Positions 48,360-55,000 are shown, counted from the first letter of the stretch. The stretch: DNA of 64,000 nt from Squalus acanthias (GCA_030390025.1 CM059432.1:74154001-74218000), one strand, 5' to 3'. Program-made: numbers and translations. Notes: a model not told the origin generated them from the letters alone.

Positions 48360-51300
48360 GTAGGAAAAGTTAATCTTGTTTGATCACAGGATTGGAATTT
48401 TAGCATTTTTGTTTTCTGGCAATGTTGAAGTGCTGCACTTTTGTCATATAACAATCCAGAGGCTGTTTGAGATATTTGTGTTTGGCTTCGGTTTCATTGG
48501 GGAGTGTTCCTCCAATCTACTAATTATTGCAGATGTAATAAGATGTCAGAAGAAAAGTAATATCCTGTGTACATAATTCAGCATTGCATATAGTTGCCAG
48601 AAGTGAAAGCTGCTGAAACAACATAACTGTGGAAAGTCAAACATTTTAATATAAATTTGATATCCAAAAAGGAATTGACCCTGGCCCAATCAAAGGTTCA
48701 GAATAAGGTGATGTTCATAAAGTACCAGAGAGACACTATGATAAACAACCTCTTCTAAACAAGTTGGTGCTTTCAGACATGCACCTGGATACCCACAGTA
48801 GATCAAGATTGGCAAAACTATTGTTAGACCCAATATATACAAGAACAACTGTATTGGGGAGGGGGAGGAAGGAAGGGGAAGGCTGCATCAAATTCAGATT
48901 TTCTTGTATGTTGAGTTATGTATGAGTTGCAGTTTCACGAAGTAGATTCTCTTAATTAGTTACTATTGTCCTTTCAGTATTTTGTACAGAAGTAATGGCA
49001 CTTTAACAGTGACGGTAATTTTGACATTGTATCGCCACTGCGTACAGTAAAGACATCAATTCAACGTTGTAAATTTACGGAAGTGATTTTATTCTCGCGG
49101 TATTTAAAGCAAGGCAGGGATAAAACAGATATGATCTGAAGTAATTTTTCTTTTTGTGTGATTTTGTTTGCACATTGATCACCTTTGTGGGTGGTAAAGG
49201 TAACTAGTTTCCTGAAGGCTGTAACAATTTAAATCAGGTGTTTCCAACCTTTCAGAGCTGTGAGCTGGATCCATGAGATGTGGTTAAATTGCTTTTGGCT
49301 CAGACAGAATCATGATTTCCATGATCAATAAATTACTTAAATTGAAAGGAATATACATCGAATTTGTTGCTGGAATGAAATTTACTTGTTACTTTGTTTA
49401 TTTTTTCTCTACTATAGCTTTGAAGATCCAGCACAGTGCTAGGGGATTGAAAAAATCTTCCTCCATGCTTTCTAATTATTTTGTATTGACTATATAATGT
49501 ATTGAAGTTTCTAAACTTGCTATTTAAAATGAATTAATATTCAAGGAAATATGTCTAAAATATGAACTGAAACAACTTATGACACAAATTCTAGCTGTAC
49601 AAATCAAATGCATACATATTTTATAGAACAGTTGACATTTGAGTAGCTAACCTTAAGATTTACAGTTACCAGCATCATTGATGTCTGTTCCTAATTCCTC
49701 GGCTGTATCTCTCTTTCACTATGGAATAGGAAACACTTCAGTTAAGCACCTATGGATAAATGGCAGCAAACCTGTTTTTCATCTGCTGTAATTGGAACAA
49801 AAATACTCAACTTGATAAATTAAGACACAAGTACTTTGTTACACAAAATTCAGTACAGGTTGCTGCAAATGTCTAATGGCCTCAATAAATTGAACAGTAT
49901 GAAAACACTGTTCATCTGTTCAGAGTGATTCAAAAAATGTTAGTGGGTTTGTTTAACATTTTTTTGTTAGGTCCTCCCCTTGCACATAATTTGGCCAAAC
50001 CTGTTGATGGGCTTCAGGAAAACAGCTATTCAATGAAATTTGTACTTTAGCTAGAAAATTTGAAGCTCGACCATTTAAATTTCATTGCTGTGTGCCACAA
50101 TTCTGCCTGATGTGGACAGGACTCAGCACTGTAGCAGAGTTGACATTCAAATGTGAGAGGAATGCACGTTCCAGCCCCAGAAACCCTACAGTTAGAAAAG
50201 AGAACCTGAGTAACATTCTGGGCAGTGTTTATTTGCAACACCAGTGGGTTGGACCAAATTTCTGATTGGTCCACTTGGAGGACAAGACACACTGAACAGC
50301 TTATCTGGAATTTGATCCTGCCTGCTGTAGAGCAGTCTGTGATGTAATTTGATCCAGTCTTGTCGTGCAGCCTACAGAAAGTGGAGCTGTAATTAGCTTT
50401 GTGAAGTTCCTCTGTTATCGAGTGTTACTGACCACCTTCCACCCCCAAAAGCCAAGCCCCTGGACTTCTCCACCCCCCCCCCCCCCCCCCCCCCCCCCCC
50501 GGAGCTCCTCTCCTTCTGCCCACCCTCTCCGAGCTCCGATCCCCTGACCACCTCCACAGGGAGCCGAGGGAAGCGTGGTTGAGGCCGCTCGGCCCGTGCG
50601 CGTTCGGAACCGCCGGTGTACATGCGCAGCTGCAACGTCCGGTGCACATGCATGTTTCCGCTGGTGCGGGGCGGTGTTTAGAGTCCGCCTCCCAAACAAT
50701 GCGTTGGCGCAGAAGACCCTGTGCAAATAATCAGTGAACAATCTGTCACTGTCTTGTATCTTAATAGGCACCCATCTCCCCCATGTTCCTTAAACTCTGG
50801 GCCAATGCTCATCGGAGGACAGTTTGTATCTGCCCAATCTTAGTCACAATTGTATTTTTTTGCCTGTCTGCCAGTTTTCCCCCGCTTCCTTGCTCCAGGT
50901 CCATTCCCTAGCCCCACAACCCCTGGGTCTGCATGGTTCCATCCCTGCCTAGTCCCATCTCTTGTGCTGCTCGCTGCTTCTCTCATGCACATCCAAAGAG
51001 ATAGCCACTCTGCTGTATAGCATGACCTCTCTTTCCTACACATTCATAGCAGGAACAATTAAAATTGTTCAAAACTTGCTTGCCATTCCTGAATGCTGAC
51101 TCAAACTAAATAGTTGGCATATGTAGTCAACAAATAGGAGGTTGGGGGCAGAGCAGTTTATAGAGTCAGAGTCATAATGGCACAGAAGGAGGCCATTCGG
51201 CCCATCGAGTCCGTGCTGGCTCTCTGGAGCAATCCAGTCAGTCCCATGCCCCCGCTCTATCCCTGTAGCCCTGCAAGTTTATTTCCCTCAAGTGCCTATC

Positions 51301-51704
51301 CAGTCTCCCCTTGAAAACATTGAGTGTGTCCGCTTCCACCACTTCCGTCGGCAGCGAGTTCCAGGTCCATACCACTCGCTGCATAAAAAAGGTTTTCCTC
51401 ACGTCCCCCCTGTGTCTCTTGCCCAAAACCTTAAACCTATGTCCCCTCATCCTTGTACCATCAATTAGTGGGAACAGCCTTTCCCCGTCTAGCCTATCCA
51501 AACCCGTCATAATCTTGTACACCTCTATCAAATCACCCCTCAACCTCCTTTGCTCTAATGAAAACAAATCCAGCTTCTCCAACCTGTCCTTGTAGCTAAG
51601 ATCCCCCATCCCTGGAACCATTCTGGTAAATCTCCTCTGCACCCTCTCAAGTGCCTTCACATCCTTCCTAAAGTGTGGTGACCAGAACTGGGCGCAATAG
51701 CGGC

Positions 51705-51790
51705 CCTTCGATAGCTCATCTGGTAGAGCGGAGGACTGTAGGGCTCACGGAGACATCCTTTGGTCGCTGGTTCGATTCCGGCTCGAAGGA
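51705..51790 (+). tRNA. tRNA-Tyr(GTA) with 13-nt intron (51742-51754), probably a retroposed pre-tRNA pseudogene
   Basis: CCTTCGATAGCTCATCTGGTAGAGCGGAGGACTGTAG-intron-ATCCTTTGGTCGCTGGTTCGATTCCGGCTCGAAGGA; anticodon 51738-51740; G15>T and A44>T versus the recalled vertebrate sequence; no CCA. Confidence 0.93.
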
Positions 51791-51797
51791 CGCCAAC

Positions 51798-51801
51798 TTT
51801 T
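51798..51801 (+). terminator. Pol III terminator-like TTTT ending the tRNA trailer
   Basis: 7-nt trailer cgccaac followed by TTTT. Confidence 0.6.
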
Positions 51802-51810
51802 GTTCTTATG

Positions 51811-52001
51811 AGGGCTGTGGAGGCTCAGTCATTGGGTATATTCAAGACAGAAGTCGATAGATTTCTGACTAGTAAGGGCATCAAGGGATATGGCGATAGG
51901 GCCAGTGAATGGAGTTGAGGCAGAAGATCAGCCATGATCTCATTGAATGGCGGAGCAGGCTCGAAGGGCCGAATGGCCTACTCCTGTTCCTATTTCTTAT
52001 G
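51811..52001 (+). mobile_element. CR1 3' terminal ~190 bp fused to the pre-tRNA
   Basis: Similar to 41190-41380; ends cctatttcttatg. Confidence 0.9.
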
Positions 52002-55000
52002 TACTCCAGTTGTGGCCTAACCAGCGCTTTATAAAGGTTCAGCATAACTTCTCTACTTTTGTACTCAATACCTCTATTTATGAAGCCCAAGATCCCATAT
52101 GCTTTACTAACCACTCTCTCAATATGTTGGACAAGTATATTGAATTGCAAAATGGGCTGAATCTGAGCTGTGGTTTGGCCACTACGGTTCTAATGATTGT
52201 TAGAGAACCTGAGTGTTCAACCTGTAACATTCTTGCAGTGCATTTAATGGCTTTATATACACTTTGATAGTTTTCAGAAGTAAATTTCTTTACCCATTTT
52301 GTGATGGTAGTGAATTCTGTTTCATCAAGCAAGTTAGTTTGCAACAATGAAATCTCATGTGACTACTGCTTAGTGAATTGCTGTTAGGACCTCTATCCAT
52401 GTGTGTATACATCATGTAATAGATTCAAAATTACATGCTGGCTGATGGTTACAAACCTAATCATTTTATTATATATGTTGTAATTCAGAACTGATATTTA
52501 AATGCAAGGGTAAATGAATAATGCTCATTGTGATATTTTACATTTTGTCACAGTTATAATGGACATTTTTCACATACCCTCCTTCTGCTGCAGAATGCAT
52601 CATCTCCTTACTGAGATGGCCCTGTATGTGATAGTATGAGTTGACCCTATCCTTTCTCCTCTTCCTTCCTGTTGGGAAACCTCTGCAACAGATGGCCCAG
52701 CTGAGATTGGAATGTCACCATTTAGGGAACTGAACACACACCCGCATCCTACTGTGTTAGTGTGCAGACTCACAGCCAACATTAAATATATTTTAAAAGT
52801 ATTACCACAGACTTGTTTTTTATCAGCATTCCCTAATGGGTGCAAGTCCATAGCATAAAATATTCATAGTTTGGCTTTAACTTAAAATCTGTCTTGCCTG
52901 TCACAAAGATGCCTGTAATGAGAAATGGAGGTGATGCTTCGGTTTGAGTTAAGACACAGGAGAATGAGCTGTACTCTGTGACCCAGACTATGCTTGATTT
53001 ACATGTTAGCACTCATTGCTAATTTAATTGATATCTTTTTGATATCCATTTCTGAGTTGCATATTTATACCTGCAATGACTCTTTACTTGTTAACTCTCC
53101 AAATAAAAATGATATTGCACTTCCGTTGTGCTGCTCAATTTCTCTTGTTTGTGCCTGCACTCACTCGCTCTCCTGTGGTTGCGCACACTTTGACACTAGC
53201 ATGTGAGCTTTTTGCAAAATCAGTTGTTTGTGCTTTTTCACTCTCTCCAGATGTTCCCTCTCTCCTTGGGCATGCACACCCGCGTGGCAGCCCCCCCCCC
53301 CCCATCAGCTGTCTGTCTCTGTCGCACTATTGCTCACTCGCACACGTCACCGCCCACCCTCTCTCTCTCTCTCATGCGCACCCCTTCTCTGCATGGGAGA
53401 GAGTATGAACGCCCCTTCTCTCGTGCGCACATCTCCCAAGTCTTGCATGCTCGTGGTCCCCCTTCTCTTGCGAATGTTTGTGCCCATTTTTCTCTCGCGC
53501 ACTTCTGACCCCTCATGCCTGCTCTCCAGTGGTGGAATTGCTCTTGAGGACACTATTATTAAGGGAGAAAGACGGTAGCGTGATTTTGATATTTTTTTGC
53601 ACTCTGGGTCTTTTTCCTCCACCGTCAGCAGAAGATTCCTGTTTTCCACACAGAACCCACATGACCACATCCAGTGTTTGTTGCAATTTAGCGCAATGAG
53701 TATACTTAACTTAAAGTCAGACTTAAGTTCTACAAAGGTGACTAAAGTATCCAGGTTGCTTACTAGTACTCGGGTGATTTCGGTACTCTGTTGTTGCCAT
53801 CTTCACTGCCCAATATAGGCACTTTGACTCTGAAACTGGTGTCTATCCAGGTTGATTGATAACAAATGTCAGCAGACTGACATTAGCCTACTTCTCAAAG
53901 GAAGACTTGCCAGGGAAAGTATAGTCCAGTACCCAGTTAGCTTTAAAACTTGAGTATCCCCCCACCCATGGATGGCATCTTGTAAACCTTGTCCCTAGTA
54001 CCAATACCCGAATCAGAAGGTTCCAGACTAGTTTCAGCGTAGTCCAAGGCAAAACAGCCTATGAATTGAAGCAAGTTGCTTAAGACAAGTGGATAATTTT
54101 CACAAGACCAATGGCTTTCCTGCTTCTTGGCGAGGGTCACGCGTGAATAATGGCTACTTGGGTAAGGTAGCGGAAATGCGTTTGGAACTGTATCCCAGTT
54201 AGAAGTCTAATGAATGAGGACAAATCTGGTGAGGAAAAATTGTGAATTTGACCATATGCAGAGTAGCTGTATTAATGTGTGTTGGTACTAGGAGAAATAA
54301 TTACTATTCATTGACGGATTAGGAAGGGGTGGCAGGTGTAAACTATTGAATCGGGGATCATGAAATAGTACAATGCTATTTCAGTCTTAGAAATTTAAGG
54401 CGACAGAAGGAACAGAATAGATGATTAGGATTTTATTTATATTTGACCACAGCTTCTATCATTTCCCAAGCCTGCAGAATGTTTTTTTCAGCAGTAGCTT
54501 TTTTTCTGTTGGATTCCATATGGCACATTTGTAGGTATGTATTCACTGAAAAAAAACTATTCAGCTACTGTGGCTGAATGGTTGGTTGAAATTTTGATGT
54601 ATAAAATGGGTGTAAAGTAGAAGATTGTTGAAGTTGTTTGCTGGTGGTAGCGGATACTCTGGTGCTATACTCACTGTTTACAAACAAATTTTACTGGACT
54701 ATTTAATGCTGTCTCATCAGTGTGCATTCAATCAATGCTCAGACAAGGATTTCCAGGGTGAGAGGTGTTAAGGTGGCAGTAAAGCTAATGCAGGATTGGT
54801 GTAATTGGCAACAAATGGTTTTGGGCTACTATGAATTCAATAACTTTTTTAAATAATCCATCTAGCCTGAGCACACTATTTTCAAATTTACACATCGAAA
54901 TAAATATAACCTGTTCAGTACTTGTTTCTTCTAAATATTTTAAAAATGTAATAATTTTTTAAAGCCTGGCCTCTTGTTTAATTTTACAACGAACGCAGCT

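Follow-up and report, generated by a model that had tools for sequence, protein, structure and literature searches.

A single-copy chimeric retrocopy in which an unspliced pre-tRNA-Tyr is joined to a truncated CR1 3' end

Template switching of the reverse transcriptase is the published model both for U6-LINE chimeras (PMC4476161) and for the heads of CR1-tailed SINEs, the birth of PittSINE included (PMC5729268); here and below, statements on published systems refer to the accessible parts of the sources. U6 chimeras have been described with L1, L2, and RTE and, for CR1, one inconclusive copy from turkey, and the same paper cites pre-tRNA retropseudogenes made by L1 (PMC4476161). In primates, 21 tRNA/L1 chimeric loci are reported, which mostly contain antisense tRNA halves (10.1101/2025.02.02.635956). 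The SINEs HE1/HER1 and the tortoise PolIII SINE are tabulated in PMC3747384. End-to-end jumping by R2 appears as a reference title in PMC4494074, and tRNA does not occur in the accessible main text of PMC13343379; further background is found in PMC7245038 and PMC5499810. No description of pre-tRNA/CR1 chimeras or of tail spacers was found in the literature searched, which comprised openly accessible main texts.

The locus considered here lies in a stretch of 64 kb (CM059432.1:74154001-74218000; locus label G000:C8:74154001-74218000) within a 3.7-Gb assembly; this whole stretch is called the window, and positions are counted from its first letter. The locus is a single-copy chimeric retrocopy, made up of a pre-tRNA-Tyr that still has its intron and the 3' end of a truncated CR1, for which the three parts, their sources, the copy number, and the rejoining host are established. 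The host is an older CR1-type LINE on the minus strand (approximately 51168-52127) that is split by the insert. Its left part (51168-51699) carries the host 3' end and is 96% alike to the paralogs L234 and L036 over the last 260 nt; its right part comprises 52002-52127. The two halves rejoin in 27 paralog pairs, in the best three of them with a 2-nt overlap (subject gap -2). When the insert is removed, 51168-52127 aligns with paralog L234 at 93.6%, and in contigs from other host copies (runs X5, X6, and X7) the host sequence leads straight into 52002. This rejoining of the host shows that both parts of the insert are at one site. An earlier, sequence-only reading had the insert splitting a host CR1 with TA duplicated, of which the split stands and the duplication is ambiguous: the TA at 51698-51699 (no strand assigned) is common to the host, to the bases upstream of the source gene, and to the right junction. 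A 2-nt duplication is indistinguishable from a blunt insertion between T and A with 1-nt overlaps, because the tail repeat would itself continue with a T, which can account for T52002, and transcription of the pre-tRNA probably began at A51699.

The downstream flank is orthologous in the related organisms B and C, with 10 substitutions in about 460-480 nt (as judged from reads on this flank and on the insert's 3' part), and in the related organism D, with 29 substitutions in 485 nt. Contigs of all three organisms reach the right part of the host, which is therefore older than these splits. They break off within the repeats, and no orthologous empty site was seen in them. One kb upstream of the insert, at 50473-50700 of the window, 28 consecutive C's precede a stretch rich in CpG (o/e 0.62 for 50501-51000), which is possibly a promoter-like or a repeat-derived island.

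The head of the insert lies on the plus strand. It consists of the 5' leader (51699-51704), a tRNA-Tyr(GTA) copy without CCA (51705-51790) that retains a 13-nt intron (51742-51754), and a 7-nt 3' trailer (51791-51797) with a T4 Pol III terminator (51798-51801). ARAGORN, run with intron search, calls tRNA-Tyr(GTA), i(38,13), at this locus (L149). The source gene was sought by a DNA search of the genome in which 40 of 149 candidates were scored; among these 40 there is one gene with the same intron, L002, on another contig (C1:52790876). It matches 51698-51801 at 100 of 104 bases, through leader, intron, trailer, and T4, the trailer and terminator being identical. The four differences are in the leader (51700), at tRNA position 15 (A box), in the intron, and at position 44; the B box is intact. 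The flanks of L002 are unrelated to the window on both sides, and downstream there is an A-run and A-rich DNA rather than a tail or CR1. Since the part from leader to T4 is common to both loci and the flanks are not, the head is the copy of a primary transcript from its start to its terminator.

These results bear on much of what the sequence-only reading had proposed for the head. A complete tRNA-Tyr with a 13-nt intron, followed by a 7-nt trailer and T4, agrees in coordinates with the ARAGORN call, and the supposed extent, that of a primary Pol III transcript with the intron kept and without CCA, matches L002 from leader to terminator and no further. L002 is also the source gene, with the same leader, intron, and trailer in other flanks, that the reading had said should be looked for; a source locus running on into tail and CR1 would have spoken against retroposition, and L002 continues into unrelated DNA. 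The leader was indeed copied, but its length, given as 5 nt, has to be corrected: the match to the source starts at 51698, and the leader is probably 6 nt long with a putative start site at A51699. A modification signature was sought in the four substitutions of the head, with nothing convincing found, and minimum-energy folding of the spliced form gave no clean cloverleaf for either the copy or its source. A CR1 piece 900 bp downstream of the source gene was ruled out as donor, being antisense and 83% alike. Intron-bearing tRNA-Tyr genes also occur, together with tRNA-Ala, in tandem arrays with a period of about 1.25 kb at G000:C8:37407443-37442347 and on C3821.

The 3' part of the insert (51810-52002, plus strand, 193 nt) is a 5'-truncated young CR1 with the last 35 codons of ORF2 (stop at 51916-51918), the 3' UTR, a tail hairpin predicted to fold at 51952-51990, and one tail unit (51994-52002). 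It is 98-99% alike to 29/29 fetched copies, the closest among 2403 candidates. These 29 copies extend upstream of the equivalent of 51810 by 0 to more than 1500 nt, and a long one (L033) encodes RVT_1 (E 1.4e-34) in the same frame as the ORF2 end of the insert. We take the donor LINE to be a CR1 on account of its ORF2 end, hairpin, and octamer tail. At non-CpG sites the copies of this family diverge from their own majority by only 1.3% (14/29 copies usable), and the insertion is therefore young.

Between the head and the CR1 body there is a tail unit. The octamer TTCTTATG occurs six times on both strands of the 64-kb window, four times as an ordinary CR1 tail and twice in the insert: once at 51994 and once, preceded by G, at 51802-51810, directly after T4. 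The eight nucleotides 51802-51809 (GTTCTTAT, plus strand) are not present in the 3' flank of the source gene, and they are out of place because a tail unit in front of the CR1 body at this position is lacking in all 29 close copies. Thus the sequence-only reading was right about some 190 bp of CR1 3' end and about a tail unit between tRNA and CR1, but not about the extent of the latter (51803-51810): G51810 is also part of the CR1 body, and the true spacer has 8 nt (51802-51809), or up to 10 nt if shared bases are counted.

That reading had left it undecided whether the chimera is a one-off or belongs to a SINE family. In the genome, the intron pattern with up to two mismatches is found at 2 places only, the source gene and the window, and the pattern of B box plus tail junction at 1 place, the window, which resolves the matter to a one-off. 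A tRNA-derived SINE (SINE2) was ruled out, there being no dispersed copies with the same head-tail junction. Like a SINE, the insert has a tRNA head with an A box (one substitution, at position 15) and a B box, and it shares with its partner LINE the hairpin and the tail of the 3' end, which is 98-99% alike to young copies of CR1; however, it also has T4 at 51798-51801, where a SINE has no Pol III terminator between head and tail, and it lacks the V-domain core that follows the head in V-SINE/HE1. As in a chimeric retrocopy, the head is the small-RNA transcript of a gene elsewhere with which no flanks are shared, and it is fused in sense orientation to a 5'-truncated LINE 3' end. A tailless retropseudogene would be a 3'-truncated RNA with a clear duplication and with neither LINE nor tail, whereas here the 3' end is complete and CR1 follows.

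The window insert is not the only fusion of its kind. When the whole genome was searched for the CR1 hairpin motif at no more than 300 nt downstream of a tRNA B box, 76 matches were obtained, and none in the reversed control. Thirty-one of the 76 carry a common SINE core, which we presume to be that of V-SINE, and of the remaining 45 we examined 39. Fourteen of the 76, the window included, are separate tRNAs with a 3' trailer and a T-run fused to a truncated CR1, all in sense orientation and all ending in a T-run of at least 2. They represent 8 isotypes (Ser three times; Tyr, Val, Asp, and Pro twice; Glu, Ile, and Gly once), and each has its own breakpoint. Of the 13 sisters, 9 contain a tRNA that scores above the Rfam threshold and 4, which are 5'-truncated or worn, do not; trailers could be matched to source genes in 7 of the 14 and split hosts rejoined in 6. 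The three Ser fusions have a common trailer, but because their flanks and breakpoints differ they are independent events. In the antisense control (233 matches), no such tRNA end was seen by eye in the 100 rows listed. A second copy of the L131 junction was sought and none was found. Mature-tRNA copies that stall at modified bases near the 3' end would escape the class search. CCA, which is present in 0/14, is for this reason not a fair test of a preference for precursors. The number 14 is a lower bound, as the search requires the exact motif, a fragment shorter than 300 nt, and one of some B-box types only. Besides the V-SINE-like and chance rows, L199 (Cys; about 40 nt unexplained, CR1 81%) and L122, L191, and L192 (a common Ile-like head and body, probably a SINE) were left out. 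It should be mentioned that L122, L191, L192, and L279 share a head resembling tRNA-Ile and a short, GC-rich body. The point at which these are joined to LINE 3' ends varies, and they probably represent a SINE that has no name as yet or a source that entered into fusions repeatedly.

A further pattern search gave four matches: the window, L119 (= L146; G000:C8:3711601), L117 (an old Leu, ambiguous), and one chance match. L119 contains at 1432-1700 a pre-tRNA-Val(TAC)-CR1 fusion with an extra partial tRNA 5' end stacked in front; the host of this fusion is a young CR1 in antisense orientation, and the duplication measures 3 nt. Of the 7 scattered U6 copies that we looked at, two are fused to LINE 3' ends. 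In L112 (1029-1267; G000:C13:66044428) the T-run of a full-length U6 is followed by a CR1 3' end of 134 nt that has the octamer tail, which is a clear U6-CR1 chimera. In L113 (1004-1410) a 7-mer resembling the tail, with one mismatch, links a U6 to the 3' end of another LINE, of which about 300 nt are present; a pattern search for U6 plus hairpin found L112 only. Other small-RNA arrangements were also seen. At L114 (942-1169; G000:C17:68357462, minus) a 5'-worn U6 directly adjoins a complete copy of 5S rRNA, which has a T-run at its end and no CR1 tail in the next 100 nt, possibly a jump from small RNA to small RNA. At L108 (G000:C1:125673460) an inverted partial self-copy precedes a U6 copy, and at L268 (G000:C9:107023780, minus) an intact tRNA-Ser(AGA) with gene-like leader and T5 directly abuts a SINE-type tRNA head; either this is the source gene and the insertion came later, or a pre-tRNA and a SINE have been fused.

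How frequent are tail units at the 5' junctions of CR1? In 600 kb of evenly spaced genome, 30 CR1 5' junctions were visible, and 0/30 has a tail unit. Among the 14 fusions there are two with one, the window and L189 (tail piece of 6-7 nt), an excess that is not significant (2/14 versus 0/30, p = 0.10; 1/13 without the window, p = 0.30). L278, which came from a search selecting for tails (11 matches versus 9 controls, with one relevant case among the 2 fetched), repeats the three-part structure of the window insert with another LINE subfamily: the 3' part of a tRNA-Pro, its trailer, a 20-nt terminal piece beginning at the first unpaired base past the predicted hairpin, and about 175 nt of LINE end. 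At L136, three terminal pieces of 17-18 nt that start within 2 nt of the hairpin base are stacked, without a tRNA. Three other searches for tRNA plus tail were made in the genome: a tight one gave 6 matches (4 CR1 ends with a chance B-box and 2 SINE heads joined to CR1 ends), another gave 12 matches versus 7 controls with the window alone relevant, and a further tight one gave 0 matches. Because copying runs from tail to head, the tail pieces were made after the long fragment. End-to-end jumping is known for R2. From these junctions we infer that the enzyme may restart on the free tail of the RNA, stop at or before the hairpin, and jump again.

We consider it likely that the insert arose in one event with two template jumps, from the CR1 body to a CR1 tail and from there to the U-end of the pre-tRNA; that both parts were inserted together is our inference. 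The CR1 reverse transcriptase would nick the older CR1 for target-primed reverse transcription, copy from its own RNA the tail plus some 190 nt, and then lose its template. The new cDNA would re-engage as primer with the 3' tail of a CR1 RNA, of which 8-10 nt would be copied, and the enzyme would jump, with an overlap of at most one T, to a nascent pre-tRNA in the nucleus, where it would start from the oligo-U end and copy as far as the 5' end, yielding a SINE-like layout of head and LINE tail. In essence the sequence-only reading had already proposed that the CR1 enzyme copied its own 3' end and then jumped via a tail repeat onto a nascent pre-tRNA, and this proposal is supported by the source match and, independently, by the tail pieces at L278, L189, and L136. 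Against it count the non-significant excess of tail spacers, with L278 drawn from the tail-selecting search, and the divergence of the head, which would fit an older head: the head differs from its source at 4/103 sites and the CR1 part from the family majority at 2/193 (Fisher p = 0.19), or, since both CR1 differences occur in other copies and the private count may be 0, with p = 0.014.

The same difference in divergence would also be expected from two nested insertions, which is unlikely as an explanation but the best of the alternatives: a pre-tRNA copy ending in one tail unit, on which a truncated CR1 was primed later, so that the TTCTTATG copies at 51803 and 51994, one on each side of the CR1 piece, are an 8-nt target duplication. 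The 3' tail of the insert, 9 nt as compared with 13-27 nt in most of the 29 close copies, would be accounted for as well. Stand-alone copies of pre-tRNA plus tail should then be far commoner than nested ones, but none was seen in four genome pattern searches, and the tail-bearing cases (window, L189, and L278) all run on into a LINE piece with the same tail. Furthermore, the head has lost none of the 8 CpGs of the source, although in this CR1 family the rate of change at CpG sites is raised about 3-fold, and duplications in the CR1 clade peak at 3-5 nt (PMC4245944, accessible part).

Quite improbable is a joining at the RNA level, in which pre-tRNA, tail fragment, and CR1 3' fragment were ligated (RtcB-type) and then reverse transcribed as one molecule. 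Ligation is named as the alternative to template switching for U6/L1 (10.1101/2025.02.02.635956, accessible part), and the common orientation and the end exactly at the U-run would fit. However, two ligations would be required, and T overlaps with CR1 in the sisters L128, L182, L186, and L187 as well as local junction duplications in L131, L187, L188, and L146 point to jumps of a polymerase. Pre-tRNAs end in a 3'-OH and not in a cyclic phosphate, which likewise counts against ligation.

A patch at the DNA level, i.e., a 104-nt piece of tRNA gene DNA or stray cDNA captured by end-joining at the 5' end of the CR1 insertion, is very doubtful. The match to the source runs 1-2 nt past the likely start site, L189 passes its first T4 to reach a second T-run, and extra nucleotides are common at the 5' junctions of L2/CR1-group elements (PMC4245944, accessible part); but the borders coincide with transcript ends, and 14/14 fusions are in sense orientation with a T-run of at least 2 at the end, without an antisense counterpart among 100 of the 233 control rows. 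That the insert is a member or the master of an undescribed family of intron-containing tRNA-Tyr SINEs has hardly any probability left, since despite a layout of head and CR1 tail as in TguSINE1/PittSINE and HE1 there is one copy in 3.7 Gb, with an internal T4 and without diagnostic changes in common with other copies.

The reading with one event and two jumps can be extended to the genome as a whole. The CR1-type reverse transcriptase would then routinely restart on its own tail, stall at the recognition hairpin, and jump end to end onto nascent Pol III transcripts, leaving dozens of independent proto-SINEs, a generalization whose chances of being right or wrong we hold to be even. Within it, some fusions would be born without a terminator, for example L182 (Ser) and L183 (Asp), because the enzyme copies only those U's that are present on the transcript. 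If it is true, the supply of head-tail fusions is not limiting for the birth of SINEs, and the filter (terminator loss, promoter, and site) can be measured in one genome.

The window copy itself is probably a dead end or a weak SINE seed. From the trailer to the tail, four or more T's in succession occur at one place, T4 at 51798-51801, and by the general rules of Pol III a transcript would end there, before the hairpin. With transcription likely cut short in this way and a substitution in the A box, the copy is likely unable to spread, terminator strength and promoter damage being judged by the same general rules. None of the sequencing runs listed as containing the sequence is recorded as RNA, which carries no weight as to expression. 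Four sister fusions are without T4 between tRNA and hairpin (L129, L182, L183, and L188). Two of them, L182 and L183, have full or near-full heads and no terminator and are, to judge by their sequences, better SINE seeds than the window copy.

That SINEs originate by template switching is usually deduced in retrospect, from families already amplified. In the present case the founding step itself is preserved, as are its source gene and the leader, intron, and terminator; with no fewer than 13 sisters in the same genome, the fusions form a countable set for asking why most never spread; one-off fusions like that of the window elsewhere in the genome would be raw material for new SINEs. The CR1-type enzyme appears to capture nuclear precursor RNAs, and an overlooked step of restarting on the tail is indicated. 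The main weight of the finding thus lies in the genome-wide class of fusions and in the signature of tail restart.

Among the described systems, the U6/LINE chimeras (U6-L1, U6-L2, and U6-RTE) resemble the window insert in being single copies of a complete Pol III transcript, up to its U-run, fused in sense orientation to a 5'-truncated LINE, with a short or no target duplication in the case of stringent LINEs; the window insert differs in that the head is an unspliced pre-tRNA, the LINE is of CR1 type, and a tail unit lies between the parts (PMC4476161, accessible part). In the primate tRNA/LINE-1 chimeras, too, tRNA sequence was inserted along with a LINE 3' end, but with duplications of 9-19 bp and by a process ascribed to twin priming, whereas the tRNA of the window insert is a precursor, complete and in sense orientation, in which leader, intron, and trailer are present (10.1101/2025.02.02.635956, accessible part). 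Tailless (pre-)tRNA retropseudogenes are likewise copies of unprocessed nuclear tRNAs by a LINE enzyme; unlike the window insert they are made by L1, 3'-truncated, free of LINE sequence, and flanked by long duplications (PMC5322556, accessible part). With TguSINE1/PittSINE (PMC5729268), HE1/HER1, and the tortoise PolIII SINE (PMC3747384) the window insert shares, as far as the accessible parts go, the tRNA head and the CR1 3' end with hairpin and 8-nt tail repeat, but these are amplified families, and the insert is one copy that keeps intron, trailer, and terminator and is without the V-SINE core. The window insert is a variant of the known small-RNA/LINE chimeras, and it resembles the founding step of a SINE rather than a member of a SINE family.
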